Assembly: GCA_003599755.1 (NCBI GenBank)
Contig: QZJO01000007.1
Span: 41,221-105,220 of the forward strand
Source: Candidatus Parcubacteria bacterium
Lineage (GTDB): Bacteria; Patescibacteriota; Minisyncoccia; Sungbacterales; SURF-37
Length of the DNA stretch: 64,000 nucleotides
Direction: 5' to 3'
The position numbers and the translations under genes are program-made. The notes under the pieces were generated by a model that was not told the origin of the DNA, did not search any database, and saw only the letters and a program-made list of their open reading frames with translations. Shown piece by piece: positions 5,285 through 63,032 of this stretch. The stretch's first letter is position 1. Every line of letters begins with the position of its first letter.

Positions 5285-5311
5285 CCAGGTTCGATTCCCG
5301 GAACTGACGCA
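5285..5311 (+). repeat. inverted partial duplicate of the tRNA-Gly 3' end (T-arm and acceptor)
   Basis: ccaggttcgattcccggaactgacgca shares ggttcgattcccg and ctgac.gca with the 3' half of tRNA-Gly (5356-5385) but in opposite orientation; lies between the recombinase fragment and the tRNA. Confidence 0.45.
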
Positions 5312-5321
5312 CACAAAATGC

Positions 5322-5350
5322 ATTCAGCCAACCACAAGGGTTGACTGAAT
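5322..5350. repeat. hairpin repeat, copy 2 (attcagccaacc-N5-ggttgactgaat), right edge of the island
   Basis: 25/29 identical to 3241-3269. Confidence 0.5.
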
Positions 5351-5355
5351 GTATG

Positions 5356-5426
5356 TATGCGGTCAGCGGGAATCGAACCCGCGTCTCGTCCTTGGCAAGG
5401 ACGCGTTCTACCACTAAACAATGACC
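5356..5426 (-). tRNA. tRNA-Gly (GCC)
   Basis: Cloverleaf GCGGTCA..TTGCCAA..GGTTCGATTCC..TGACCGC-A; anticodon loop uuGCCaa. Confidence 0.85.
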
Positions 5427-5455
5427 GCTTTAAATCTTCTGCCGGAAACCCGGCC

Positions 5456-8389: not shown

Positions 8390-10849
8390 ATGGCTGATAT
8401 CGGAAAAATTACGCCGCGCGAGATTACCGACGAGATGCGCGAGTCGTACCTCGACTACGCGATGTCGGTGATCGTTGCGCGGGCATTGCCCGACGTCCGG
8501 GACGGCCTCAAGCCCGTGCACCGGCGGATTTTGTACACCATGGATTCCATGGGATTGACCGCGGGCGCAAAATTCCGCAAATCCGCGGCCGTCGTGGGCG
8601 CGTGCCTCGGCCAATACCATCCGCACGGCGACATGGCAGTGTATGACGCGCTCGTACGCCTTGCCCAAGAGTTCGCGTTGCGCTATCCGCTCGTAGACGG
8701 GCAGGGCAACTTCGGATCCGTGGATGGCGATCCGCCCGCGGCCCAGCGCTACACCGAAGTCCGCCTGACCAAAATCGCATCCGAACTGTTGCGCGATATC
8801 GACAAGGAAACCGTCGCCTTTATTCCCAACTATGACGCGACGCGCGAAGAGCCCACGGTACTGCCGGCGGCCATCCCGAACCTGCTTTTGAACGGCGCGC
8901 TCGGCATCGCGGTCGGCATGGCGACCAATATTCCGCCGCATAATTTGAATGAGATCGTGGATGCGCTCGAGCACCTCATCGCGCATCCGAACGCTACGCA
9001 CGACGACCTTATGGAGATCCTCAAGGGCCCGGATTTCCCGACCGGCGGCCTGATTTTTGACGAAAAAAACATCCGCCAGACCTATGCCACGGGCCGCGGC
9101 GCGATTCTCATGCGCGGCGTTGCCGAGATCGCGGAGCGCGAAAAAGCCAAAGGATCGAGCCGCGAAGGAACGCAGATCATCATCACCGAAATTCCGTACC
9201 AGGTGAACAAGGCCGAGCTCATCACGCATATCGCGGAGCTGGTAACCGACAAAAAGCTCGAAGGCATCCGCGACATCCGCGACGAATCGGACAAGGAAGG
9301 ATTGCGCATCGCGATCGACCTCAAAACCGACGCCTATCCGCAAAAGGTACTGAACTTTTTGTACAAATACACCGACCTCGAAAAAAATTTCAACGTGAAC
9401 ATGTTAGCGCTCGTGGACGGCATCCAGCCGCAGGTTTTGTCCTTGAAGCAGATGCTCGAGGAATACCTCAAGCACCGCAAGGACGTGGTCACGCGCCGGA
9501 CGCAGTTCGATCTGGCGCGCACCAAAGAACGCATCCACATTCTTGAAGGACTTTCCAAGGCGCTTGATCATATCGATGCGGTGATCGACACGATCAAAAA
9601 ATCCGCTGACCGCGAAGCGGCGCATGCGAATTTGAAAAAGAAATTCAGTTTTTCCGACATCCAGGCCAACGCCATTCTCGACATGCGCTTGGCGACGCTC
9701 GCGAACCTCGAGCGCCAGAAGATCGACGACGAACTCAAGGAAAAGCAAAAGCTCGCGCGCGAGCTCGAAGCGCTGTTGAAAGATCCGAAAAAGATCTCGG
9801 ACGTCATTGCCAAGGAACTCAACGGCCTCAAAGCCAACTACGGCGACGAGCGGCGGACCAAAGTCATGAAGCACGCGGCGCGCGAGATCGCGACCGAAGA
9901 TATCATCCCCGAAGAAGAAATGATCATCGTGCTCACGCGCGGCGGCTATATCAAGCGTATCCGCCCCGAAGCGTATCGGGTGCAAAAGCGCGGCGGCAAA
10001 GGCATCCAGGGCATCGAAACGAAGGAGGAGGACGTGGTCGAGCATTTCGTGACCGTCAATACGCACGATGATCTTTTGTTTTTCACCTCGTCGGGCAAAG
10101 TATTCCAAACCAAGGCCTACGAGATACCTGAAGGGTCGCGCACCTCCAAGGGTAAAGCCATCGTCAATTTCCTCTCGGTCAAGGCGGACGAGCAGATCAT
10201 GTCGGTCGTGCCGGTGCCCAAACGCACCGCGCCCCGCCCCAGCGGATTTCTCGTACTGGTGACCGAGCGTGGTATGATAAAGAAGGTCACTTCCGACGCG
10301 TTCGCCAATGTGCGCAAAAGCGGCATTGTCGCGATCAATCTCGACAGCGGGGATGCGCTACGCGGCGTTTCACTGACCAGCGGCAAAGATGAGATCCTCC
10401 TGGTAACCGCCGGCGGCCAGGCGATCCGATTCAAGGAAACCGATATCCGGCCTATGGGCCGCGGCGCGCGCGGCGTCAAAGCCATGCGCCTCAGGAAGGA
10501 TGATCTCGTCCGCGGCATGAACGTCATCACTGCGGTCGGCGGCGAAGAACGCGCTGAAATCCTCGTGGTCTTCGATCAGGGATTCACGAAAAAAACGCCG
10601 GTGCGCGAATACAAGCGCCAGAAGCGCGGCGGTTCGGGCATCAAGACCGCAAAGATCACGGCCAAAAACGGCAAAATCGTCAACACGCGCATCATCAAAG
10701 AGGAGATAGAAGTCGTCGCTATTTCGCAAAAAGGCCAAGTCATCCGCACGCCGCTTGCCGACATCCCGACACTGGGCCGCGCGACGCAAGGCGTGCGCAT
10801 CATGCGCCTCAACGAGGGAGATCACATCGCGTCTTTCACGACACTCTAA
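8390..10849 (+). CDS. gyrA: DNA gyrase subunit A
   Basis: ..[30 protein letters not shown].. N-terminal signature; 819 aa with C-terminal beta-pinwheel repeats. Confidence 0.95.
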
Positions 10850-14714: not shown

Positions 14715-14817
14715 TGGATCGTTTATCGATAGAAGAGTAGCTATCGCGTTGGCCATTCTCACGTTTTGCCCGCGTCACGTATTTTACTCACGAAACGACT
14801 CGCATCCATTGCGACAA

Positions 14818-14853
14818 TGTACTACTATTACGCTATAGCGTAATAGTAGTACA
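14818..14853. promoter_or_regulatory. 36-bp perfect palindrome, putative operator, abutting the PaaX-like start codon
   Basis: tgtactactattacgcTATAGCgtaatagtagtaca; perfect dyad symmetry; last nt is the A of the ATG. Confidence 0.5.
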
Positions 14854-15416
14854 TGCAACGAAAAACGTGGTATTTTATTGGGAAAACTGTTCTTTCGATC
14901 ATCGGCACGGGTGCTCTTGTTTTGAGTGCCGCGGCTGTTCCAAACGCTGCACAGATGCTCGCTCCGTTAGTCGCCAAACGCCGCGGAAAAACGAATAGGC
15001 GTGCGCTTGAGCGTACAATCCATGCGCTGCAACGCCAGCGACTCATTGAATTCGTGCCTCATCACGGAAAAATTGTCATGCGGATTACCGAAGGTGGCAA
15101 GAAAAAATTGCGTGAATTTGACTTCGATACGATGTCGCTCGCGGTGCCGCAACACTGGAATAAACAATGGACCGTAATACTGTTTGATATTCCTGAAGAA
15201 AAGAAGTCTGCGCGGGACGCACTCAGAAGAAAACTACGGGATCTGCAATGCTATGCGCTCCATCGCAGCGTCTTCGTGCATCCAGCGGACGGACGCGATG
15301 AAATTGATTTCGTTATCCAGACATTCGGGATTCAAAACTACGTGATTCATTTTCGAACGCCATCCCTGGGCTATGGCGAGGGCAGGGCTCGCGCTCATTT
15401 CAAATTACTGCCATAG
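14853..15416 (+). CDS. PaaX-like transcriptional regulator with a predicted N-terminal TM segment
   Basis: Winged-helix-like ALERTIHALQRQRLIEF, then the PaaX C-terminal signature WNKQWTVILFDIPEEKKSARDALRRKLRDLQCYALHRSVFVHP. Confidence 0.5.
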   Translation: MQRKTWYFIGKTVLSIIGTGALVLSAAAVPNAAQMLAPLVAKRRGKTNRRALERTIHALQRQRLIEFVPHHGKIVMRITEGGKKKLREFDFDTMSLAVPQHWNKQWTVILFDIPEEKKSARDALRRKLRDLQCYALHRSVFVHPADGRDEIDFVIQTFGIQNYVIHFRTPSLGYGEGRARAHFKLLP

Positions 15417-15421
15417 CAGTC

Positions 15422-15457
15422 TGTACTGATATCGCGCTATAGCGCAGCATTAGTACA
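15422..15457. promoter_or_regulatory. degenerate second copy of the 36-bp palindrome, 3' of the PaaX-like gene
   Basis: tgtactgatatcgcgcTATAGCgcagcattagtaca; same TGTACT..CGCTATAGCG..AGTACA frame as the upstream site, 4 arm mismatches. Confidence 0.4.
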
Positions 15458-15547: not shown

Positions 15548-15819
15548 GCCGATGTAGCTCAGCGGCAGAGCAACTCCATGGTGGGATCGCTCTTGATCTC
15601 CCGCCCCCGCAACGGGAAACTGTTGCGGCGTACCCCGAATAACGGTTCACGGCCCGGCACGGGCATATAGACCGTGGCCCTGCCTCAGGGCCCGAACGAC
15701 TGACAAGGGGGATCCGGTCCAACGCGGATCAATATACAGTCTAGCCCTCTGATGGTGCCCCAGAAACAAGAGGTAGTACGCGAAGGAGTAGGTCGTGGGT
15801 TCAATTCCCACCATCGGCT
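15548..15819 (+). tRNA. intron-containing tRNA, best reading tRNA-Thr (GGU), split in the anticodon loop
   Basis: 5' exon GCCGATG-TA-GCTCAGCGGCAGAGC-A-ACTCC-auGGU and 3' exon aa-GGAGT-AGGTC-GTGGG-TTCAATT-CCCAC-CATCGGC-T give a perfect 7-bp acceptor, D arm, 5-bp anticodon stem and T arm only when ~200 nt are removed; the only junction obeying group I rules gives loop AUGGUAA. Confidence 0.55.
15583..15782 (+). ncRNA. ~200-nt intervening sequence in the tRNA anticodon loop, probably a small group I intron
   Basis: Bounded by an exon-terminal U and an intron-terminal G; GNRA-capped hairpin gcaacgg-GAAA-ctgttgc; GACTG..CAGTC candidate P7 pairing; size comparable to the smallest known tRNA group I introns. 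Confidence 0.45.
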
Positions 15820-15850
15820 CGAGCATATATCCGCATAACCCGCCACTCGC

Positions 15851-24287: not shown

Positions 24288-24311
24288 CGCGCGAATACCG
24301 CCATCGGTCTG

Positions 24312-24422
24312 GTATACCCGGTAGTACAACGCGCGAAGATCGTTGCGGTTAAAAAATTAACCGATATGCCACGCCCGTGCGCGCCGGATTTATTGGATGG
24401 AAGGTTGTACTACCGGGTATAC
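24312..24422. repeat. ~110-bp element with 19-bp terminal inverted repeats (family copy A)
   Basis: gtatacccggtagtacaac (24312-24330) / gttgtactaccgggtatac (24404-24422) around a 73-nt variable core; right arm ends 10 nt before the ATG of the next gene. Confidence 0.55.
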
Positions 24423-24432
24423 TGAAAGGACT

Positions 24433-24846
24433 ATGCCAGAACGCGCCCCGGGCCATTTAGCCAACGAAATCGCGGAACTGGAATCATTACTCGCTCAAAA
24501 GCGCGCATCGCTGGAACGCGCGGGCGAGGCCGGCGAAGAAAAGGAAGCGTTCGGCGAGACATTTCGCGAGCGCTACGGCGAAGCGTTCGCCCCGCCGCCT
24601 GCGGCAAGCCCCGGACAGACCACTCCGCCGCCCGCGCCGCCCCATGATCAGGTTGCCGCGGTCCAGACCGCGCCCGAAGACCAGCAGGTCGCCGCGCTTG
24701 TCGAAATCGCGCTTACCAAAGGCGTGCGCGCGGCCGCCGAGGTCGCGCGCCATGCGACGCCATGGCTTTTGGATGAACTCCATGACCGTCTCCAAGACCG
24801 CTACTACGACGAGCTCGTCCGCGCGCGCAAATTGAACGAGCGCTAG
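24433..24846 (+). CDS. hypothetical protein
   Basis: ATG with AAAGGA upstream; Pro/Ala-rich middle, helical ends; no family recognised. Confidence 0.4.
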   Translation: MPERAPGHLANEIAELESLLAQKRASLERAGEAGEEKEAFGETFRERYGEAFAPPPAASPGQTTPPPAPPHDQVAAVQTAPEDQQVAALVEIALTKGVRAAAEVARHATPWLLDELHDRLQDRYYDELVRARKLNER

Positions 24847-24854
24847 CACTTCCC

Positions 24855-27284
24855 ATGAGTTCTCTTGCCATCTTGGGCTACGGAACCGTACTCGCGGTTG
24901 CGGTCGCGAGCGGCGCGGCATGGTGGGCCGTGCGCCGCGTCCGCTCCCAAGACGAGCTCGCGCGATCGCTCAATCTCGCGCTCCTGCACGTGTCGCTGCC
25001 GCGACCGGATCCGAATGTCCAGCGGTCGGCCGAAGAGTTACGCCAAGATATCGGCCTCATGGAGACGGTATTCTCGGGCCTGAGCAACATCCGCGACTCG
25101 TGGTGGAGCACGCTCTGGCACGGCGCCCCGAATTTCGCGCTCGAGTTGACCGTGCCGCATGTCGGCGAGGAACTGTGGTTTTACGCCGCGGTGCCGCGCC
25201 GATTTGCCGCCGCGGTCGAGAAAATAATCCACGGCGTATATCCGGACGCGCGCATCGAAAAAACGAACGACTATAACATCTTCCATCCGACGGGCGAGAG
25301 CGCCGTGGCGCTCGTCACGCTGGCGCGCTCCACCATCCTGCCGATCCGCACGTACCGCCGCGCCGAGGGCGATCCGTTGCGCGAGGTCGCCAACGCATTC
25401 TCAAAACTCGCGTCCACCGGCGAAGGAGCGGCACTCCAGATTGTTGCGCGCCCCGCGCCGAGCTTCTGGACCGAACGGATCTTGTCGCACGCGAAGCTCG
25501 CATTCGCCGGCAAAGCGCCCATTATCCCGAAATCAGCCCTCGCGGGGGAACTTGCTGCGTTGGCTGGAGCAACGACTCAGAAAAAAGACGGCCAACCCGA
25601 AAAAGAACATCGCCTTTCGCCGCAGGAAGAAGAGGCGATCCGGCTTATCGAGACCAAGGGATCGCGGCCGCTGTTTCTCGCAAACATTCGCATCGTCGCC
25701 GCCGCGCCTACCCAGGAGCGGGCCGACGCCATTGCATCGGACATCAGTGCCGCGTTTCGCCAGTACGCCGAACCCGCGCTCAACGAATTCAGCATCCGAC
25801 CGCAAACCGGATCAAACCGAGCAAAGGCCCTGTATCACTACTCGTTCCGGCTATTCCACCCGCGCTCGGCAATCGTGCTTTCGGCCGAGGAACTTTCGAG
25901 CATCTACCATTTCCCCAATGCGGTGCTCGGTACGCCCAAAGTACGCGCAGTCAGGGCGCGCGAGGCCGCGTTGCCGATGAATCTAGGAACCGCGGGCGTC
26001 ATGCTCGGCACGAATATCTTCCGCGGCGAGACGCGCGATGTCCGCATGGATCCGGACGACCGGCGACGGCATTTGTATATCATCGGCCAGACCGGAACCG
26101 GCAAAACGTCGCTCATGACCGAAATGATCCGCCAGGATGTTCTCGCAGGCCATGGCGTCTGCTTCATCGATCCGCACGGCGAAAGCGTGGAGCGCGTGCT
26201 CGGCTATATACCGCCCGCGCGCCTCGGCGACGTAATCTATTTCAATCCCGCGGACGTCGAGCGGCCGTTCGGCCTGAACCTCCTCGAATATGATCCGCGC
26301 TTCCCCGAGCAAAAAACGTTCGTGGTCAATGAGCTCTTTTCGATTTTTCAGAAACTCTACGGCGCGGTGCCCGAGGCCATGGGCCCGATGTTCGAGCAGT
26401 ATTTCCGGAATGCCACGCTCCTCGTGCTCGACGATCCGGAATCCGGCAATACGCTTTTGGAAGTGGAGCGCGTATTCGTGGATAAAGCATTTCGCGCGCT
26501 GAAGCTCGAGCGTTCGCACAACGTCGTGGTTCAGACCTTCTGGCGCGAAATGGCTGAAAAAGCCGGCGGCGATGCGGCGCTCGCCAACATGGCGCCCTAT
26601 ATCACCTCGAAGTTCGATACGTTCCTCGCCAACGAAATCATGCGGCCGATCATCGCCCAACAGCATTCGGCGTTCGACTTTCGCGCCGTCATGGATAAAA
26701 AACAAATCCTACTCGTAAACCTTTCCAAGGGCCGCCTCGGCGAACTCAATTCTTCACTGATCGGCTTGATCCTCGTCGGCAAGCTTCTCATGGCCGCACT
26801 CGCGCGTACCGACGCGCCCGAATCCGAGCGGCCGGATTTCTATTGCTACCTGGACGAATTCCAAAACGTCACCACGCCCTCGATCGCGACGATTCTTTCC
26901 GAAGCGCGCAAATACCGGCTTAATCTTATCCTGGCGCACCAATTTCTCGGGCAGCTCGATGAAAAGATCAAAACCGCCGTGTTCGGCAACGTGGGGTCGC
27001 TGGCCGCGTTCCGCGTCGGCGCCGAGGACGGCGAATTTCTCGCCACCCAATTCCAGCCGGTGTTTTCGGCGCACGATCTCATCAACACCGATAACCATCA
27101 CGCCTGCGTGAAGTTGTTGGCGCACGGCCAAACCGCCCTTGCCTTCAGCATGCACACCAGTCCGCCGGCCGCGCCGGACCCGGCGCAGGCGGAGGCTGCC
27201 AAGAATTTTTCGCGCGCGACCTATGGCCGACCGAAAGCGGATGTCGAGCAGGAGATACGTGCCCGCTACAATTCCGTGAACTAA
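24855..27284 (+). CDS. VirD4/TraG-family type IV secretion coupling-protein-like ATPase (membrane-anchored)
   Basis: N-terminal TM helix, ~400-aa unique domain, Walker A IIGQTGTGKTSLM, Walker B FYCYLDEFQNV, 809 aa. Confidence 0.5.
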   Translation: MSSLAILGYGTVLAVAVASGAAWWAVRRVRSQDELARSLNLALLHVSLPRPDPNVQRSAEELRQDIGLMETVFSGLSNIRDSWWSTLWHGAPNFALELTVPHVGEELWFYAAVPRRFAAAVEKIIHGVYPDARIEKTNDYNIFHPTGESAVALVTLARSTILPIRTYRRAEGDPLREVANAFSKLASTGEGAALQIVARPAPSFWTERILSHAKLAFAGKAPIIPKSALAGELAALAGATTQKKDGQPEKEHRLSPQEEEAIRLIETKGSRPLFLANIRIVAAAPTQERADAIASDISAAFRQYAEPALNEFSIRPQTGSNRAKALYHYSFRLFHPRSAIVLSAEELSSIYHFPNAVLGTPKVRAVRAREAALPMNLGTAGVMLGTNIFRGETRDVRMDPDDRRRHLYIIGQTGTGKTSLMTEMIRQDVLAGHGVCFIDPHGESVERVLGYIPPARLGDVIYFNPADVERPFGLNLLEYDPRFPEQKTFVVNELFSIFQKLYGAVPEAMGPMFEQYFRNATLLVLDDPESGNTLLEVERVFVDKAFRALKLERSHNVVVQTFWREMAEKAGGDAALANMAPYITSKFDTFLANEIMRPIIAQQHSAFDFRAVMDKKQILLVNLSKGRLGELNSSLIGLILVGKLLMAALARTDAPESERPDFYCYLDEFQNVTTPSIATILSEARKYRLNLILAHQFLGQLDEKIKTAVFGNVGSLAAFRVGAEDGEFLATQFQPVFSAHDLINTDNHHACVKLLAHGQTALAFSMHTSPPAAPDPAQAEAAKNFSRATYGRPKADVEQEIRARYNSVN

Positions 27285-27303
27285 TTCTTATCTCCGCGAA
27301 TCG

Positions 27304-27339
27304 AAAACCGAGCGCGTACCACGCGCTCGGTTTTGTTTT
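27304..27339. terminator. bidirectional rho-independent terminator
   Basis: aaaaccgagcgcg-tacca-cgcgctcggttttgtttt. Confidence 0.65.
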
Positions 27340-27353
27340 ATGCACACACTCTC

Positions 27354-46766: not shown

Positions 46767-47085
46767 GGGTTATGGATGGTTGATGCCGCCAGGCGACGTT
46801 CCTAGTATAGCGGGAATTCTCCGATGGATGCGAGTCCGAAGGAAGTGAACGCTATGCGATCCGTCTTCCACACACGATGCACAAGTTATAAACATTTTCT
46901 CGATTCTTTTCAAGTTCCCCGAAACAAAAGCTCTGGTATATAGTAGTGAGCAGACATTACGCATCCGACCGTATCCCATGCGCCGGGTCGAACCGGCCTT
47001 CGATTCGCCTTCGCCGTCCTTATCCATCCTCGTTTCGAAACCCGCTTCCGACGCGCGGTAGTGCGTTTGAGGCCATTCGTTCACC
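46767..47085. other. candidate oriC segment I (rpmH-dnaA intergenic)
   Basis: Lower-GC 319-bp spacer between divergent rpmH and dnaA; DnaA-box-like TTATCCATC at 47010-47018 and weaker TTATAAACA. Confidence 0.3.
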
Positions 47086-48471
47086 ATGAATCGAGAGGAT
47101 ATCTGGAAAAGCGTTCTCGCGGAACTCGAGCTCACCATCTCGCGCGCGAGCTTTATTACATGGTTCCGGGAGACGTCGATCGCCGACATGAACGACGGCG
47201 TGGTTACTGTGTCGGTCCCGAACGGATTCGCCAAAAGCTGGCTGCAGGACAAATACCATAAATCCATCGTCCGGGCGCTCCGCGGACTCGCCACTGACAT
47301 ACGGGAGGTGCAATACGTCGTTGGCGCGATCGATCGCCCAATGCCCGTCCTGCGGCCGAAACCCGTGCGGTTTTTCCCGCGCCCCGACGTATCGGATATC
47401 CCTCAGGATCGCCTGGAACTGCGGGATACCGTGGTAGATCCCGAAAGCGGCCTCAACCCGCGCTATACGTTCGAACATTTCATCGTCGGCTCGTTCAATG
47501 AGCTGGCGCATGCCGCCGCGCAAGCGGTGGTACAGAATCCGGGAGGCGCGGGCTACAATCCGCTCTTTATCTATGGAGGCGTAGGACTTGGCAAAACGCA
47601 CCTCATTCAGGCCATCGGCAATGAATTTCTCAAACAGAACCCCGGCCGCCGGGTCCGCTACATGCCGTCTGAGCGCTACATGGGCGAGGTGGTGGAAGCG
47701 CTGACGTCCAAGACCATGAATGACCTCAAAGAGCGCTACCGCGCCGTGGATGTCCTCATCATCGATGACATCCAATTCATCGCGCGTACGGAAAAAATGC
47801 AGGAAGAATTCTTCCATTTATTCAACTCCCTGTACGAGCGCAACAAACAGATCATCATTTCTTCCGATAAGCCGCCAGCCGCCATTCCGACGCTCGAAAA
47901 CCGCTTGCGTTCGCGTTTTGAGGGCGGACAGCTGGCTGATGTCGGATCCCCGGATATCGAAACGCGCCTCGCGATTCTGCAAACCAAGCTCAAAACGCGC
48001 AATGTAGCGTTCTCAGAAGACGTCATACGGTGCATCGCCGAGACCATCTCGACCAATATCCGTGATCTTGAAGGAGCGCTGAACCGTATTATTCTGCGTT
48101 CGTCGATGTCGAATGCGCCGATTGATGCCGAAGAAGCCAAGCGCATTCTCAACCAAGTGGTCTCGGCTCCGCGGCGATTTACATCGTATAAAAAGATCAT
48201 CCGCGCGGTCGCGGAATTCTATGACGTATCAGAAAAAGACCTTATCAATCGCAGTCGGAGAAAAGAGATCGTAAAACCCCGCCAAATCGCCATGTACCTC
48301 ATGCGGGATGAACTAAAATGTTCGTTTCCGTTCATTGGGGAGAAGCTCGGGAAAAAAGATCATACCACCGCCATCCACGCGTTTAAAAAAATCATGAACG
48401 ACCTTACCGTCGACCCCACGCTTGAGGTAGAGCTGAAATCAGTGCGAGAAAAAATTTATACTAACCCTTGA
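47086..48471 (+). CDS. dnaA: chromosomal replication initiator DnaA
   Basis: Walker A GGVGLGKTHLIQAIGNEF, sensor and box VII regions, C-terminal HTH (..HTTAIHAFKKI); 461 aa. Confidence 0.95.
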   Translation: MNREDIWKSVLAELELTISRASFITWFRETSIADMNDGVVTVSVPNGFAKSWLQDKYHKSIVRALRGLATDIREVQYVVGAIDRPMPVLRPKPVRFFPRPDVSDIPQDRLELRDTVVDPESGLNPRYTFEHFIVGSFNELAHAAAQAVVQNPGGAGYNPLFIYGGVGLGKTHLIQAIGNEFLKQNPGRRVRYMPSERYMGEVVEALTSKTMNDLKERYRAVDVLIIDDIQFIARTEKMQEEFFHLFNSLYERNKQIIISSDKPPAAIPTLENRLRSRFEGGQLADVGSPDIETRLAILQTKLKTRNVAFSEDVIRCIAETISTNIRDLEGALNRIILRSSMSNAPIDAEEAKRILNQVVSAPRRFTSYKKIIRAVAEFYDVSEKDLINRSRRKEIVKPRQIAMYLMRDELKCSFPFIGEKLGKKDHTTAIHAFKKIMNDLTVDPTLEVELKSVREKIYTNP

Positions 48472-48676
48472 GTTACTTGGGGAAAACACGGTGACGGTTG
48501 ATGATATAAATTCTTACAGAAAAATTCTTCTCCTCTCTATCCCCGCAGCCGTCCACACCCTATACCATAGCTGCAACGCTTTAAAACCCGCGCGCCATCT
48601 ATCCAATCCATCGCTATCCCGATATTATTCATCCCTAACAACCACAACAATAAAATTATATACGTACGGTATTGTT
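48472..48676. other. candidate oriC segment II (dnaA-dnaN intergenic)
   Basis: 205-bp AT-rich spacer with several degenerate DnaA boxes (cTATCCAAt, cTATCCCGa, gTCCACA) and an AT-rich tract aacaataaaattatatacgta. Confidence 0.35.
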
Positions 48677-49771
48677 ATGAAATTTACTTCTACGCTTGAA
48701 CACCTCAAAAACGCCGTACAAACCGTTGAGCGATTCAGTGGGCGCCATATCACGTTGCCAATTCTTGCGCATATTCTTATCGTGGTAAAAGAGCGGGGCA
48801 TCGCATTACGCGCGACGAATCTTGAAATGGGGATTGAATATACTATTCCGGGAAAAACACTAAAGGTCGGCGCTACTACCGTGCCCGCCCGATCGTTTTC
48901 ACAAATTCTTCAGTCCTTGCGTGATGATACGGTCACGCTGGAAGCGGAAAAGCAACACCTCGCCATTACTACGCAAAATACGAATGCGACGCTATTCGGC
49001 TTAAATGCCGATGAATTTCCCGTTTTGCCGGCGATTAAAGAGGAAACGAAATTTTCACTCGATACGATATTATTTACCGGCGCTCTGGAACGCATTATTC
49101 CCGCCGCGGCAACGTCTGATCTTAAACCCCAGCTCAACGGCGTATACCTGGCGGTTAAGCCGGGCACAATTACCCTTGCGGCAACCGACTCATTCCGGCT
49201 TGCGGAGCAGACGCTTGCCGTACCTGAGATCAAAGATACGAGCGTGGAATGTATCTTGCCGCTCCGCACCGCGCAGGAACTTTTGCATACGTTGCCCGCG
49301 GAAGGAACGCTCGCGATCGGCATCGGTGAACACCAGATTGTGTTTCGCGCGGGGAACGTAGAAATCGTTTCGCGTCTTATTGATGGCGCGTATCCGCCGT
49401 ATCGCGCTATTATCCCGAAAACCTATGAAACGAATACCGTCATCAAGCGCGACGACCTGATCCAGCGCATCCGGCTTGCCGCTATTTTTTCGAGCCGGCT
49501 GAATGAAGTGAGTTTAGAAGTAGGGCCCCAAGAGATCGCGGTCGCGACCTCGAACAGCGAAACGGGTTCGTCCACCACGCGGCTTGCCGCCAAAGGAAAG
49601 GGGAAGACCGGGTCGGTCCTGTTCAATCATCGGTATCTCGTCGACGGCTTAGCAGCGGCCGGCGGCGAGCACGTCACGCTGAACCTCAACGGTTCGGGCG
49701 GCGCGGCGCTGATCCAAAATCCGAATGACTCATCATTTCTCTATCTCTTGATGCCGATCCGCTCCGCCTAG
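48677..49771 (+). CDS. dnaN: DNA polymerase III beta sliding clamp
   Basis: MKFTSTLEHLKNAVQTVERF.. three-domain clamp, 365 aa from the internal ATG; ORF-track upstream extension is AT-rich spacer. Confidence 0.9.
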   Translation: MKFTSTLEHLKNAVQTVERFSGRHITLPILAHILIVVKERGIALRATNLEMGIEYTIPGKTLKVGATTVPARSFSQILQSLRDDTVTLEAEKQHLAITTQNTNATLFGLNADEFPVLPAIKEETKFSLDTILFTGALERIIPAAATSDLKPQLNGVYLAVKPGTITLAATDSFRLAEQTLAVPEIKDTSVECILPLRTAQELLHTLPAEGTLAIGIGEHQIVFRAGNVEIVSRLIDGAYPPYRAIIPKTYETNTVIKRDDLIQRIRLAAIFSSRLNEVSLEVGPQEIAVATSNSETGSSTTRLAAKGKGKTGSVLFNHRYLVDGLAAAGGEHVTLNLNGSGGAALIQNPNDSSFLYLLMPIRSA

Positions 49772-49778
49772 CATTCAT

Positions 49779-49810
49779 CAAACCGCCCGGGAATCACCCG
49801 GGCGGTTTGA
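49779..49810. terminator. bidirectional terminator between dnaN and the convergent PBP gene
   Basis: caaaccgcccggg-aatca-cccgggcggtttga. Confidence 0.65.
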
Positions 49811-49811
49811 T

Positions 49812-52358
49812 TTAGGGAATCGCGACGCTTGCGCGTCCCATGTTCCCGTACGGATCATAGGCCCGCACTTCAAGTATGCTGGATGCCGAGGGAAGTTCGG
49901 CTTGCGATATGCGAAATTCGATTTGCGGGGGCGGCGATTGGCGAGACAAGAGAATCCGTTCGCCGGCAACCACAAGCACTTCGCGCACGCCGTGGGGCGC
50001 GGTCATTCCGACGCGCAGTACGACGCCTGAGTCATCCGGCGGGGAAATCTTTTCGACGCTCACCTGCGGCTGTTTTTCGGGCGTATGGATATCGTCGCTT
50101 TCGCGCGGTATCTCGGCGACGGGGCGGACCGTAAATCCGCTCGCGCCGAGCCATCCCCGGAACGCGGCCTCCCAATTTTCGTATTGCGGATCGCGGGTCG
50201 GATCATCCGGTGCGGGGCCGCTCGGGTCGCGCCGATCGATCCAGTACAGGGGATCGTGCGGCTCGCCGTACGCGACTTCGCGGCGGAGTTCGGGCGGCGT
50301 GAAGGGCGTGGCCAGCTTCTGGGAAACGCTATCAATGGTGATGATCTGGCCGCCCTGCCAGATACCGCGGAGGATTGGCTTGTCCGTTTCTTGGGACTCG
50401 GGCGGAGTGAATTCGGCCGGCTGTATGTGATTGAGCGCGAATGCCATGAAGTCGTGCCATGCGGGCGCTGCGGCCATAACACCCGATCCTTCTTGCTGGA
50501 TCGGGTCGTTGTTGCTGTTGCCCACCCAGACGCCGATGGCGACGCGCGGGGTATAGCCGACGGTCCATGCATCGCGATAGTCCTGCGTGGTGCCGGTTTT
50601 TGCCGCGACTTTGACATCGGGGAAATAGAGCGATGAGCGCGGCTGGAACGTCGGTATGCGGGCGTCATTGTCGGAGAGCACGTCATTGACGATGCGCGCG
50701 ACGTTTTGGTCTATCACGAGGTGGCCATCAATTTTCTTTTCTTCCAGAATTTCCCCGCTCGCACTTTTGACCGAAAGGATCGCGGACGGCGCATGGCGCA
50801 CGCCGTCGTTCGCGAATACGCCATACGCGCTGACCATATCCAGTAATCGCACTTCGGCGCCGCCGAGCACGAGCGATAGGCCGTATCGGCGCGCATCGCC
50901 GAGCGTCGTGATGCCGAGAGCCGATGCAGTGCGCATGGCATCGTCAACGCCGGTCAAATACAAAAGTTTTACTGAAGGAACGTTCAGGGACTGCGCGATG
51001 GATTGGCGCAGGGTCACCGGCCCGCGGAACGTGTTGTCGTAGTTCCGGGGATGATAGCAATCTTCGGGATTGGCCCCGCTCTGGGGTCGGGGCAGGCCAT
51101 CAGGACCGCATCGGGTGTTGAATTCCGTAAAGACGTCGAACAGGACCGTATCGGGCGTGAACCCTTTTTCGAATGCCGCGGCGTATACGAACGGCTTGAA
51201 CGCCGAGCCCGGCTGGCGGAGGCGCAACGCGGCATTTACTTGCGGATCGAGGAGGCAGGAGACGCCGGGCGCGCAACCCTTGGGCTCGGGATCGGAGAAA
51301 TATTTTTCGGCCGCCGAGCCGACCATGGCCAAAATATCGCCCGTCGTGGGATCGACCGCCACGAGCGCCATATTATGGGCTTTGATCAAGGTTTCGTTCC
51401 GCTCGCCGTATTCTCGGACGACGCGCTCGGCTTCTTCCTGCCATTCCCAATCAAGCGTCGTGGTCACGATAAGCCCGCCGCGCTCCAATTCCTCTTGGCC
51501 GTACCGTTCGGCAAGATACTCGCGCACGTGCATGACAAAATGCGGCGCACGCATGTCGTCGGTTGGTTCGAGAAATTTGAGTTCTTCGGCCTTGGCCGCG
51601 GCCGCTTCCGCGTCGGTAATGAAATCGAGCGCGGCCATGCGGTCGATGACGTAGTTTTTGCGGGCGAAGAGATCCTCTTGGTGCTGCCCGTACGGCGAGT
51701 AATACGAAGGCGCTTGGGGCAGCGACGCCAAGAGCGCCGCTTGAGCAGTCGTGAGGTCCTTCGCATCCTTGCCGAAGAAGGTTTCTGCCGCGGCCTCGAT
51801 GCCGTAGGCGTTGGAACCGTAGGGGATTTGGTTCAGATAGGCGGCGAAAATTTGGTCCTTGGGAAACCGCGCATCCAAGGCGATCGCGAGGATCGCTTCT
51901 TTGAATTTCCGGGTCCAGCTTTGCTCGTCGGTCAAAAACGATTTCTTGATGAGCTGCTGGGTGATGGTCGATCCGCCTTCTTCGATGCTGCCGGCGCGCA
52001 GGTTCGTGATCGCGGCGCGCAGAATTCCGCGCAGCGACAGGCCGCTATGACTGTAGAAATTGGCATCCTCGATCGCGATGGTGGCCTCTTTGACGTGCTC
52101 CGAGACCTCGGAAAACGGCACGACGGTTCGGCGCTCTTCGCCGTGAACTTCGTAGAGTAATACTTTACCGGTGCGATCGTAGATCTTGGTGGACTGGACG
52201 ACGCGGCGCGCGAATAATTCTTCGGGTTGCGGGAGATTCCGCCAGATGACGGCCACGGCGATACCGCCCGCGGCAACGGATGCGAGTATGCCGATCAAGC
52301 CGATCCAGATGATCGTGCGGAGCCAGTGCCGCATATGCAATTTTCTCAGTCGAACCAT
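49812..52358 (-). CDS. class A penicillin-binding protein (transglycosylase/transpeptidase, PBP1A type)
   Basis: GT51 motifs EDANFYSHSGL and GGSTITQQL; transpeptidase SxxK/SxN/KTG motifs downstream; N-terminal TM anchor. Confidence 0.9.
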   Translation of the reverse strand: MVRLRKLHMRHWLRTIIWIGLIGILASVAAGGIAVAVIWRNLPQPEELFARRVVQSTKIYDRTGKVLLYEVHGEERRTVVPFSEVSEHVKEATIAIEDANFYSHSGLSLRGILRAAITNLRAGSIEEGGSTITQQLIKKSFLTDEQSWTRKFKEAILAIALDARFPKDQIFAAYLNQIPYGSNAYGIEAAAETFFGKDAKDLTTAQAALLASLPQAPSYYSPYGQHQEDLFARKNYVIDRMAALDFITDAEAAAAKAEELKFLEPTDDMRAPHFVMHVREYLAERYGQEELERGGLIVTTTLDWEWQEEAERVVREYGERNETLIKAHNMALVAVDPTTGDILAMVGSAAEKYFSDPEPKGCAPGVSCLLDPQVNAALRLRQPGSAFKPFVYAAAFEKGFTPDTVLFDVFTEFNTRCGPDGLPRPQSGANPEDCYHPRNYDNTFRGPVTLRQSIAQSLNVPSVKLLYLTGVDDAMRTASALGITTLGDARRYGLSLVLGGAEVRLLDMVSAYGVFANDGVRHAPSAILSVKSASGEILEEKKIDGHLVIDQNVARIVNDVLSDNDARIPTFQPRSSLYFPDVKVAAKTGTTQDYRDAWTVGYTPRVAIGVWVGNSNNDPIQQEGSGVMAAAPAWHDFMAFALNHIQPAEFTPPESQETDKPILRGIWQGGQIITIDSVSQKLATPFTPPELRREVAYGEPHDPLYWIDRRDPSGPAPDDPTRDPQYENWEAAFRGWLGASGFTVRPVAEIPRESDDIHTPEKQPQVSVEKISPPDDSGVVLRVGMTAPHGVREVLVVAGERILLSRQSPPPQIEFRISQAELPSASSILEVRAYDPYGNMGRASVAIP

Positions 52359-58185: not shown

Positions 58186-58276
58186 TTTTATTGCTATACT
58201 GTATTTAGCGCATTGAAGATCTTCGATTGCAAAAGGGCTACCAGGCCCTTTTCGCGTATTCGATGCTGTTCGCCCG

Positions 58277-58437
58277 CTCAGGCTGTGGGCAATTGCAGTT
58301 ACTGACCCGTTTCTGCAATGGGGGTTTTCTTTAGTCCGGCGTCTTGGTTCCCGCCTCGCTGCGGATCCTACTGGGGCGTGCGACGGGGGAATCCTGACCT
58401 CCGCGTTCCCGAACCGGAGCATTGCCCACAGCCTGAG
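58277..58437. promoter_or_regulatory. ~160-nt structured element closed by a 17-bp long-range stem (candidate cis-regulatory leader or small RNA)
   Basis: ctcaggctgtgggcaat (58277-58293) pairs with attgcccacagcctgag (58421-58437); interior has several local hairpins, one (attgcag/ctgcaat) competing with the closing stem, and G5/G4/G5 runs; lies in the 300-bp spacer upstream of the 58488 gene. Confidence 0.35.
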
Positions 58438-58487
58438 AGGGTGATTAGATGTTCGTTGTGCAGTAAACTAACCGATCGAGGGAGGAT

Positions 58488-61746: not shown

Positions 61747-62328
61747 ATGAAGACCAAAACGCTGTCCCCGATCGTACTGGTCGTGGTTCTGGGGCTTGCC
61801 CTGCAGGGCTGTGCGGCATTAGGCGCGGGCTCCGGCTACGCGGTCGGCGGCCCGAAGGGCGCGATCGTCGGCGGGCTTATCGGTGCTGGTCTCGATGCGC
61901 TCGCGATCACGAGCGCGTTTCGATCCGCGAAGGAGCGCGAGCGCGCCGAGGCCGCTGCCCGCGCCGAGGCCGAGGCCTTGGCCAAGGGCATTACGCCCTG
62001 CCATACCGGCACACGCAAACGCTGGGCGCAGGGTGCGCTAGTGGTGAACGATCGGTTCGAGAACTGTGACAGCTTCACGAACCGCGTCCACTACCTGGGC
62101 GACGAAACTTATGTGTCGCCCCCGCCCGGCGTAGTCTACAAGCCAGGTGCGGTGGAGATGGATCCATACTCCCAGGAAGGGTTGCGGCCGCCAGCGATTC
62201 CGAAGGTACCGGTGCCCGTGCCGCCACCAGCCGTGAATTCGGCGCCGCCCGGCGACGAAGGCCCGGACGACGAGCGGCCCAAACGGAAGCAGAAGTATCA
62301 ACCGCGGCTGTTCAGGTACAGCCGCTAG
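61747..62328 (+). CDS. lipoprotein with a Gly-zipper segment and Pro-rich tail
   Basis: Lipobox LALQGC; GxxxG-rich YAVGGPKGAIVGGLIGAGL. Confidence 0.55.
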   Translation: MKTKTLSPIVLVVVLGLALQGCAALGAGSGYAVGGPKGAIVGGLIGAGLDALAITSAFRSAKERERAEAAARAEAEALAKGITPCHTGTRKRWAQGALVVNDRFENCDSFTNRVHYLGDETYVSPPPGVVYKPGAVEMDPYSQEGLRPPAIPKVPVPVPPPAVNSAPPGDEGPDDERPKRKQKYQPRLFRYSR

Positions 62329-62332
62329 CAAG

Positions 62333-62360
62333 AAGGCGAGGACCAGCCGGTCCTCGCCTT
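62333..62360. terminator. rho-independent terminator
   Basis: aaggcgaggacc-agcc-ggtcctcgcctt followed by cattcgttt. Confidence 0.6.
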
Positions 62361-62444
62361 CATTCGTTTAAATATTTAAGGAAGCGGAAGCGCCGGGCCG
62401 CAGCATTCCCGATACAAAGGAAAATCTGCTAGGGTGAGGTTGCT

Positions 62445-62551
62445 TATACCCGGTACTTACAACGGTAAACGTAGTATTGATCGGGCGGAGGCGGATCATC
62501 TCAAAAGTCGTATGCGGGCATACCAATCTTTTGCGTTGTAGTACCGGGTAT
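62445..62551. repeat. ~107-bp element with terminal inverted repeats (family copy B)
   Basis: tatacccggtacttacaacg / cgttgtagtaccgggtat; arms homologous to copy A (24312-24422); right arm overlaps the tsaE ATG. Confidence 0.55.
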
Positions 62552-63032
62552 GGAACGGCGAACGAAAACCGTCCGCGAGACCCAGGACTTTGCGCGTACG
62601 CTCATGGGAGCGTTGCGGCGGCAGAGCCCCCGGAAGGGTGCGCTCGTGCTCGCGCTCGAAGGCGAGCTGGGCAGCGGCAAGACCGCGTTTACCCAAGGTA
62701 TTGCCAAGGCGCTGGGTATCCGCGAAGCGGTGCAGAGCCCGACGTTCGTACTCATGCGCGTGTATGCACTGCGGCGTCCGATCGCCGGATTCCGCCGCTT
62801 CGCGCATATCGATGCGTATCGACTCGGCGCGGCGGATGCTCGGCGGCATCTGGGATTGCCGGCCCTGCTCGCCGATCGAGAAACGATTGTCGCCGTCGAG
62901 TGGGCAAGCCGCATCAGAGCGCTTTTGCCGCCGGATGCGGTATGGATTTCGTTCGCACATGAGCAGCGGCGCGGCCTGCCCGTCCGACAGGCGGGCCGCG
63001 CCATCCGCGTGCGCATACCGACGCATTCTTGA
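62550..63032 (+). CDS. tsaE: tRNA threonylcarbamoyladenosine biosynthesis protein TsaE
   Basis: P-loop LEGELGSGKTAFTQGIAKALG and SPTFVLMRVY. Confidence 0.8.
   Translation: MERRTKTVRETQDFARTLMGALRRQSPRKGALVLALEGELGSGKTAFTQGIAKALGIREAVQSPTFVLMRVYALRRPIAGFRRFAHIDAYRLGAADARRHLGLPALLADRETIVAVEWASRIRALLPPDAVWISFAHEQRRGLPVRQAGRAIRVRIPTHS

Follow-up and report, generated by a model that had tools for sequence, protein, structure and literature searches.

Several families of bacterial miniature inverted-repeat transposable elements (MITEs), among them Correia/NEMIS in Neisseria, RUP in pneumococci and ERIC in enterobacteria, carry long terminal inverted repeats and form hairpins as RNA; Correia hairpins are substrates of RNase III and can carry promoters. 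REPINs are reportedly doublets of REP sequences that form hairpins and are mobilised by RAYT transposases. Genomes of the Patescibacteria (candidate phyla radiation, CPR) are extremely compact and generally regarded as poor in repeats and insertion sequences, and no report of MITE-like or REPIN-like elements in these bacteria was found in the searchable literature. Here we describe two short inverted-repeat elements, copies A and B, in a 64,000-nucleotide stretch of a Candidatus Parcubacteria genome (contig QZJO01000007.1; hereafter the window), together with their relatives in other Patescibacteria. Based on their terminal inverted repeats, small size, lack of coding capacity, intergenic position and sporadic occurrence with a clean empty site, we favor, with about as much confidence as doubt, the view that they are low-copy, non-autonomous, non-coding foldback insertions of the MITE/REPIN kind in which only the arms are conserved.

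In window coordinates, the two copies are built as follows:

24312-24330, plus strand: left arm of copy A, GTATACCCGGTAGTACAAC, 19 nt
24331-24403, plus strand: core of copy A, 73 nt with two small hairpins and no kinship to any other core
24404-24422, plus strand: right arm of copy A, GTTGTACTACCGGGTATAC, 19 nt, followed by TGAAAGGACT and the ATG at 24433
62445-62464, plus strand: left arm of copy B, TATACCCGGTACTTACAACG, with one T bulged relative to the right arm
62465-62533, plus strand: core of copy B, 69 nt with two small hairpins, unrelated to the core of copy A
62534-62552, plus strand: right arm of copy B, CGTTGTAGTACCGGGTATG, or CGTTGTAGTACCGGGTAT(G), the last three bases of which are the tsaE start codon

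The arms of copy A, 19 nt each, are 100% complementary, and the stem of copy B consists of 12 bp, a 1-nt bulge and a further 7 bp. The arms of B differ from those of A by one compensated swap, G-C to C-G, present in both arms. When up to 3 mismatches were allowed, an 18-mer of the arm occurred three times in the window as compared with 0.01 expected, the fourth arm differing by an indel, and exact matches to the 9-mer TACCSGGTA were confined to the four arms of A and B. The two copies, 38 kb apart among housekeeping genes, were the only strong long-range foldbacks of their type in an inverted-repeat scan of the whole window and the only matches to a covariance model of the arms; neither method revealed a further copy in the 64 kb. 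Solo arms were found nowhere in the sequences scanned, the cores of A and B fail to align with each other and have no match elsewhere in the sequences compared, and the elements contain no open reading frame (ORF). As RNA, copy A is predicted to fold with -55.2 kcal/mol (z -4.5) and copy B with -45.7 kcal/mol (z -4.0), in both cases with the arms forming one long stem, and the opposite strands fold about equally well, as does single-stranded DNA. The inverted-repeat elements are thus real and far beyond chance, and the arm scans and the failure of the cores to align bear out an earlier reading of the window made from sequence alone (the sequence-only reading), which had proposed a two-copy family with homologous arms and unrelated cores.

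Further members were found in other genomes and metagenomes, the loci of which are labeled with L-numbers (L003, L023, etc.). A genome collection was scanned with the pattern ATACCCGGTA-N70-100-TACCGGGTAT, with elements of 90-120 bp admitted, and gave 15 loci, roughly the chance number. Five of them (L003, L004, L009, L010 and L015) are metagenome-assembled genomes of Patescibacteria in which the arms extend well beyond the searched 10-mers, and the other ten have no extended arms. In a stricter scan of metagenomes all four loci obtained (L016-L019) had extended arms and are members of the family; L019 represents the same organism as L015 (99.8% identity), and L017 the same as L003 (99.3%). 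Two divergent members were met independently of any search pattern:

L023, 2497-2607: divergent member with the arms ATACCCCGTAGAAAAATTTT / AAAATTTTTCTACGGGGTAT
L018, 6952-7091: divergent member L018-2 with the arms CCGGGCAGTGAAAATGCGATT / AATCGCATTTCTACTGCCCGG

Altogether, the family comprises 13 elements in 8 organisms, namely A and B of the window plus 11 elements in 7 other Patescibacteria genomes, and occurs in Parcubacteria/Saccharibacteria genomes at gene boundaries. The elements range from ~60 to 140 bp, mostly ~107 bp, are present at a density of 1-2 copies per 15-64 kb, and have arms of 17-24 bp with the consensus (T)ATACCC[G/C]GTA[G/C]T...A[C/G]TAC[C/G]GGGTAT(A). Arms of the A-type, ...GGTA[G/C]TACAAC, are found in copies A and B, L004, L009 and L018-1, and arms of Type 2, with ...GGTAGTGA... 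facing ...TCTACTACC, in L003 (two elements in tandem), L010, L016, L019 and L018-2, both types being present in L018. No member was detected in seven further syntenic genome segments (L020/21, L022, L026-28, L029, L030, L038 and L039; ten loci, ~120 kb non-redundant).

A second foldback family was observed in two of these genomes, with the arms ACCCCCACACCA / TGGTGTGGGGGT and a length of ~115-135 bp (L018 10343-10478 and L023 7819-7932), and with a shorter hairpin at L023 ~9920-9960. Here, too, the arms are common and the cores unrelated, and the intergenic positions differ between the two genomes; the L018 element lies after comM, between convergent genes.

The sporadic distribution of the first family is clearest at the junction of yebC and ruvC. 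The L023 element sits exactly between these genes, with the TAG stop codon of yebC inside the left arm and the ATG of ruvC (MRIVGIDPG...) inside the right arm, and its 23-bp stem, AUG included, is perfect. In L029, with flanks of ~87-91% nucleotide identity, and in L030 (~79-81%), the yebC stop codon is followed by a single base and the ruvC ATG, with no element present, and BLAST alignments of L023 with these loci break exactly at the element ends, where 112 nt replace 3 nt. No element separates yebC from ruvC in L026-28, L038, L039 or the window either. Occupancy differs at further junctions: the one between a hypothetical gene and tsaE is filled in the window (copy B) and empty in L023, L026 and L030, and the one between pnp and a hypothetical gene is filled in L018 and empty in the window. 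Cumulatively, the comparison of filled and empty sites and the differing occupied junctions in syntenic genomes suggest gain and loss of the elements, i.e. mobility on an evolutionary time scale. As judged from these sequences, the distribution is an insertion/loss pattern and not that of a conserved regulatory site of particular genes. The position of L018-2, between a terminator and a promoter-like stretch containing TATAAT, places this element probably outside any mRNA and is more in keeping with selfish DNA at a harmless location than with an element of an mRNA. Directly to the right of L018-2 (L018 7092-7135), a perfect DnaA-box 9-mer, TTATCCACA, is followed by GCTATAAT before the next gene.

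If the elements are indeed foldback insertions, their entry, or at least their persistence, may be limited to short YATR/ATG sites, at which insertion would regenerate the start codon and leave both neighboring genes intact. The agent that moves them and also holds the arm sequence constant, whether a transposase, a recombinase or something else, may then be encoded elsewhere.

A number of observations weigh against this interpretation. All copies are flanked by AT, often as TAT...ATA, and since AT/TA is self-complementary it reads equally well as part of the stem; no target-site duplication is therefore unambiguous. For L023 and the empty sites to reflect an insertion that duplicated AT at the ATG, the 3 nt on the left of the insertion point must have changed as well; these are AAC in L029, AGT in L030 and CGC in L023. 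The CGC of L023 is complementary to the host GCG that follows the ATG, which looks like selection for pairing and not like a footprint of transposition. There are no near-identical multi-copy sets, as copies from the same genome (A and B, the two of L003 and the two of L018) have only their arms in common. The arms are ~100% conserved across genera with GC contents of 0.51-0.63 while the cores are saturated with changes, which is unexplained for a purely selfish element. Neither the Pfam matches of the 64-kb window nor the gene tables of ~230 kb of related loci include a transposase, RAYT or recombinase. Finally, Type 2 elements conserve a G.U pair and an AxC mismatch with fixed polarity relative to gene direction, an asymmetry that hints at a strand-specific, i.e. 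RNA-level, constraint. Of the two options offered by the sequence-only reading, the MITE-like mobile family is thus upheld by the occurrence in other genomes and by the filled and empty sites, and is left without a clear target-site duplication, multi-copy sets or a transposase.

The other option was a conserved long-stem regulatory RNA. We aligned the arms of ten elements and used 500 shuffles and a slid partner strand as controls. Standard pairs filled 88.6% of the cells of the alignment and 11 of the 22 stem pairs were changed on both sides, values that were reached by none of the 500 shuffles, and sliding the partner strand left 32-48% paired. The covariation of the arms across copies in other genomes, which the sequence-only reading had named as a check, is therefore present. 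One stem pair is G-C in A and L004 and C-G in B and L018-1, in both arms, and L023 and L018-2 each carry two compensated pairs inside an otherwise invariant 12-mer. These latter changes show that complementarity between the arms, and not the small palindrome within a single arm, is what is maintained. At the same time, the arm sequence is near-identical over 17-19 nt in the window, L004, L009 and L018, genomes with GC contents of 0.51-0.63, and core identity is ~25%, the random level, in the same or the flipped orientation. Lengths of the A-type elements are 106, 107, 108, 108 and 109 bp, and the L023 element measures 111 bp; we estimate that, under a uniform expectation over the admitted 90-120 bp, the chance of three independent finds falling no more than 2 bp from the window copies is ~0.004. 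Type 2 elements vary from 61 to 140 bp, and in their stems a G.U pair followed by an AxC mismatch occupies positions 13-14. Wherever the direction of the flanking genes is known, GTGA is on the arm that is 5' with respect to it.

The elements occupy the short gaps, a few bases wide, that separate genes. In five elements (six with the tandem partner of L003), the arm ends with the first two letters, A and T, of a well-supported start codon:

tsaE in the window, ruvC in L023, murG in L015/L019 and an Mnh-like membrane gene in L003: ATG in the arm
XerC/D-like gene in L018: ATG in the arm, on the other strand

In four more elements (A, L004, L009 and L010) the ATG lies 8-13 nt past the arm, and in L003, L010 and L023 the element touches the upstream stop codon. 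In the window, the right arm of copy A stops 10 nt upstream of the ATG at 24433 and that of copy B covers the first two bases of the tsaE start codon (ATG at 62550), in agreement with the claim of the sequence-only reading that the right arm ends at, or within 10 nt of, the next start codon.

Considering these features, the elements could be host cis-regulatory RNA hairpins, transcribed with the neighboring genes, in which the stem would bury the start codon and, where present, the Shine-Dalgarno sequence. Gating would operate through translational coupling to the upstream cistron, or through cleavage of the RNase III/Mini-III type that would yield a leaderless or short-leader mRNA, and the arms would be conserved because they are read by a sequence-specific RNA-binding protein or RNase. 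Modeled folding is consistent with this possibility, as the stems are stable far beyond shuffled sequences (z of -4.5 for A, -4.0 for B and -6.3 for the L023 element, the last at -43.1 kcal/mol) and most copies are predicted to form hairpins of -43 to -63 kcal/mol, the stems of which would meet the ~20-bp near-perfect double-stranded length of RNase III-type processing stems. It also draws support from the covariation of the arms; from their conservation across genera while the cores drift; from the fixed position of the AUG at the stem base in five elements, including those upstream of ruvC and murG; and from the Type 2 polarity of G.U and AxC, which is constant relative to transcription in all known orientations. 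In L023 the 5' arm holds the upstream UAG and the 3' arm the AUG, with the CGC/GCG pairing lengthening the stem over the start codon; in L004, the GGAG Shine-Dalgarno sequence stands opposite a CTCC of the left flank. On the other hand, the downstream genes are functionally unrelated, and the same gene occurs with or without the element in close relatives. L018-2 is located between a terminator and TATAAT, and copy B follows a terminator. Complementarity of the host flanks beyond the arms, taken over all elements, was no better than in mismatched-pair controls, so that there is no general evidence of flanks evolving to lengthen the stem. By hand count, G.U is not in excess over A.C on the sense strand, i.e. 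there is no strand bias, and both strands fold about alike. A covariance search of the elements against Rfam 15 gave no match at the gathering score or at E<=10, and pairing alone leaves the identical arms at unrelated loci unexplained. Taking both sides together, we consider a primarily regulatory hairpin possible but doubtful. The regulatory option of the sequence-only reading therefore holds as far as the arms co-vary and five elements have a start codon in the stem base, and falls short in that flank pairing is at control level and L018-2 is probably outside mRNA.

To return to foldback insertions, if a whole element is transcribed, folding predicts a very stable hairpin with the AUG in its base. 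Expression of the downstream gene would in that case depend on ribosomes that come from the cistron before it, on cleavage of the stem (e.g. by RNase III) or on a transcription start within the element. A predicted hairpin of -43 to -63 kcal/mol over a start codon must matter for expression wherever the element is fully transcribed. The L023 element, with the yebC UAG on the 5' side of the stem and the ruvC AUG on the 3' side, suggests the ribosome route: ribosomes finishing yebC may melt the stem and expose the ruvC start, which would preserve the coupling seen at the empty sites. The two options of the sequence-only reading span the likely answer: a signature of mobility is better supported than a regulatory role, the latter is possible as well, and the two are not mutually exclusive.

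Because A-type elements keep a length of 106-109 bp despite random cores, which fits a geometric constraint on double-stranded DNA, the arms may alternatively be protein sites at the DNA level. They would serve as binding or crossover sites of a recombinase or invertase, or be bridged at fixed spacing by a regulator or nucleoid protein, with the DNA between them free to vary in sequence but constrained in length. The 9-bp palindrome TACCSGGTA in each canonical arm and the conservation of the arm sequence across genera agree with this, and one L018 element, located between divergent genes, abuts a gene for a XerC/D-like recombinase. However, the palindrome within the arm is lost in L023 (TACCCCGTA) and L018-2 (CCGGGCAG) while complementarity between the arms is kept, and the lengths of Type 2 elements spread over 61-140 bp. 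In addition, known inversion systems need more than ~70 bp, duplicate assemblies agree in orientation, the polarity of Type 2 is fixed, a Xer homologue is found neither in the window nor beside the other copies, and the attC core sites (RYYYAAC/GTTRRRY) are absent. We regard this explanation as improbable.

Two specific forms of site-specific rearrangement were rejected. Identity with integron attC sites fails on the outer ends, TATACCC...GGGTATA, the lack of R''/R' cores and of arrays, and the lack of a Xer/IntI homologue in the window. An inverton is disfavored by the lack of a promoter in the cores, the same orientation in the L003/L017 and L015/L019 assemblies and the fixed Type 2 polarity. 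Cores captured from phage or other foreign DNA were likewise rejected: there was no match in a phage collection, the two-arm pattern did not occur in IMG/VR, and single-arm matches in viral contigs were at chance level only.

A further explanation treats the inversion of the arms as incidental. The arms would be promoters or translation-initiation signals that point outward, or else processing stems that flank the gene of a small RNA, for instance a decayed tRNA. In its favor, TATACT or TATAAT follows the right arm in A, L004, L009 and L010, with the ATG following directly in others, the arms of the L018 element face outward to divergent genes, the A-type cores are tRNA-sized (68-73 nt), and a tRNA-Thr gene in L020 is bracketed by a 16-bp long-range stem. 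Nevertheless, a search of A and B and their surroundings revealed no sigma-70-type promoter, even though the tRNA genes of this genome have ordinary TTGC-N17-TATAnT promoters. There is no -35 element at the right distance, the -10-like hexamers at the ATG-overlapping copies lack key bases, and solo arms are missing from all sequences scanned. The cores are not tRNAs at the 85% thresholds of ARAGORN and have no Rfam matches. We give this explanation hardly any credence. In the same context, tRNA or pseudo-tRNA cores were rejected since ARAGORN was negative at default and 85% thresholds and its calls at 70% are noise, and a sigma-70 promoter inside the elements was rejected since, on hand inspection, the -10-like hexamers of the right arm fail at -11A/-7T. 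Neither copy A nor copy B contains an intrinsic terminator in the form of a compact GC-rich stem-loop with a U tract. The conserved 12-mer ATACCCGGTAGT (e.g. 24314-24325) equals the universally conserved 790 region of 16S rRNA, AUACCCUGGUAGU (785F/806R primer site), minus one base; in local alignment, mimicry of this region scores only marginally above shuffles and fails for L023 and L018, and the likeness is probably a coincidence.

The combination of arms frozen across genera, a fixed A-type length, a constant polarity of the Type 2 mismatch and a fixed place of the AUG in the stem base suggests that the arms are read by a sequence- and perhaps strand-specific agent, and arms that stay frozen while the cores are randomized and the length is kept require a partner that is sequence-specific or a copying mechanism of a non-standard kind. 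Extending this thought, the arms could be the recognition module of a sequence-specific machinery of Patescibacteria, and the elements mobile "start-codon gates". Such hairpins would spread between gene junctions and set the AUG of genes without a Shine-Dalgarno sequence at a constant place in the base of a ~20-bp stem. Ribosomes from upstream would open this stem, or a double-strand-specific RNase would cut it, to give leaderless or short-leader mRNAs. Although unlikely in our judgment, the idea would explain at once the conservation of the arms across genera, the polarity of G.U and AxC, the ~107-bp length and the randomized cores.

The genes and signals around the two copies in the window are the following:

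24433-24846, plus strand: hypothetical ORF downstream of copy A, 137 aa, without a Pfam match
24855-27284: gene for a VirD4/TraG-like ATPase, the second gene of a ~3-kb segment after copy A
62332-62361, plus strand: intrinsic-terminator-like hairpin that belongs to the upstream gene 61747-62328 and lies 84 nt before copy B
62550-63032, plus strand: tsaE (PF02367), with its ATG, the first possible start of the ORF, in the stem base

Thus, the claim of the sequence-only reading that both copies follow a terminated upstream gene is correct for B and not for A, as no terminator was detected between comM and copy A. The ~3-kb segment (24288-27350; copy A, the 137-aa hypothetical gene and the VirD4/TraG-like ATPase gene) lies between comM and a LysM/M23 peptidase gene. 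In the window, the peptidase gene and uvrD come after the segment, at the left edge of which copy A is located, and in the relatives L020-L022 the segment is missing and comM directly precedes the LysM/M23 peptidase gene and uvrD. The segment is possibly a lineage-specific insertion with copy A at its edge. ComM and TsaE of the window match proteins of Candidatus Parcubacteria bacterium at 100% identity, and by ComM the next relatives are Candidatus Sungbacteria at ~70% identity.

Besides dnaA-dnaN and a type IV secretion/pilus-like cluster, the window contains housekeeping genes, the order of which is common to several of the compared loci. The dnaA-dnaN genes and the minimum of the cumulative GC skew lie at ~47000-50000, which indicates that the window spans the region of the replication origin.

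Other structured features were noted in the window and its relatives. Upstream of ruvB (57151-~58160), a ~175-nt structured element (58270-58444, minus strand) is closed by a stem of 21-25 bp, ..CAGGCTGTGGGCAAT / ATTGCCCACAGCCTG.., and is present at the same place in five syntenic genomes (the window, L023 5185-5352, L030 7983-8160, L026 5820-6014 and L038 6234-6408). In a four-genome alignment with L038 left out, 17 of its 47 predicted pairs are compensated, and it has no Rfam match; it is a candidate for a new structured RNA or leader. In L038 (6683-8869), RuvB itself carries an intein with a LAGLIDADG endonuclease domain and is 728 aa long as compared with ~336 aa in other genomes. Long-range stems of 24 bp at 88% and 21 bp at 100%, enclosing 83-94 nt, were found at L018 3870-4011 and L030 7853-7977; one immediately precedes rpsO, and the other is located ahead of the leader element of ruvB.

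A gene for tRNA-Arg(GCG) at 15548-15820 of the window (plus strand) is interrupted in its anticodon loop by an intron of 200 nt. The gene is missed by Rfam and by ARAGORN at default and is detected only when ARAGORN is set to search for introns; models of group I introns give no match at E<=1. Just before it, two related long palindromes (TGTACT..TAT..CGCTATAGCG..ATA..AGTACA; 14817-14854 and 15422-15457) bracket the ORF 14853-15416, a PaaX_M gene (Cas2-like domain) whose ATG overlaps the end of the first palindrome. The palindromes are likely an operator pair, and homologous PaaX_M genes recur in L020, L023 and L030. The tRNA-Thr(GGT) gene of L020 (2737-2846) is enclosed in a perfect 16-bp long-range stem (CCCGCCTAACTTTTGC / GCAAAAGTTAGGCGGG) that resembles the processing stems of rRNA operons. 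At 5288-5379 of the window there is a 92-nt inverted repeat with arms like the T-arm and acceptor of a tRNA (GGTTCGATTCCCGG...), one arm being the 3' part of a tRNA-Gly gene (5358-5428, minus strand) and the other resembling a plus-strand tRNA fragment.

If confirmed, our interpretation would mean that small foldback insertions circulate in Patescibacteria and fit into intercistronic gaps of one to a few bases with the start codon regenerated. The elements would then be markers of recent rearrangement, as copy A at the edge of the 3-kb lineage-specific segment may illustrate, and candidate post-transcriptional gates for tsaE, ruvC and murG.

How closely do they resemble described systems? With bacterial MITEs they share terminal inverted repeats (17-24 bp) on a short non-coding element (61-140 bp) and presence or absence at orthologous sites (yebC-ruvC and other junctions); copies similar over their whole length within a genome are lacking (cores ~25% identical), and no cognate autonomous element or transposase appears in the window or in the gene tables of the related loci. 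The Correia, RUP and ERIC families in particular are alike in being ~100-150 bp long and non-coding, with repeats of ~20-26 bp and flanks of the TA/AT type; in being intergenic, often in transcription units, and varying in presence between related genomes; and in a transcribed form that is a long hairpin able to affect the expression of neighbors. Those families, however, have tens to hundreds of copies similar over their whole length, as compared with 1-2 per 15-64 kb here that share the arms only, and differ further in that we found no cognate transposase and no demonstrable target duplication, and that the start codon is often part of the terminal repeat.

REPINs, too, are ~110 bp long and intergenic and consist of two inverted sequences of ~20-25 nt around a less conserved spacer, with compensatory changes; our elements correspondingly hold two inverted conserved units in one hairpin with compensatory change at 11 of 22 pairs. 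Units of repetitive extragenic palindromic (REP) sequence are imperfect palindromes headed by GTAG, whereas palindromy within the arm is not conserved here, being lost in L023 and L018-2. REPINs are also high-copy, with homologous spacers and a RAYT gene, as opposed to 2 copies in 64 kb with no RAYT seen and no Y1-transposase match. The attC sites of integrons are similar as imperfect inverted repeats with a conserved base and small bulges or mismatches, as well as in their position between ORFs, their variable terminal structure, which differs widely in length, and their overall size of 57-141 bp, and one family copy (L018) is beside a tyrosine-recombinase gene; unlike them, our family lacks RYYYAAC/GTTRRRY and cassette arrays, has housekeeping neighbors in conserved synteny and is accompanied by no integrase in the window.

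In sharing only its arms, in its very low copy number and with no mobilizing enzyme in sight, the family thus departs from all described bacterial families. For single features, parallels exist in other organisms with other sequences, in families whose copies are homologous throughout. Rickettsia palindromic elements (RPE) similarly persist where genes are not destroyed, but are located in-frame within coding regions. MIRU of mycobacteria are direct repeats that carry small ORFs, yet resemble the yebC-element-ruvC arrangement in lying between cistrons with overlapping stop and start codons. Among the eukaryotic Stowaway MITE superfamilies, finally, subfamilies have in common only their terminal repeats, a TA target and small size, much as the members described here do.

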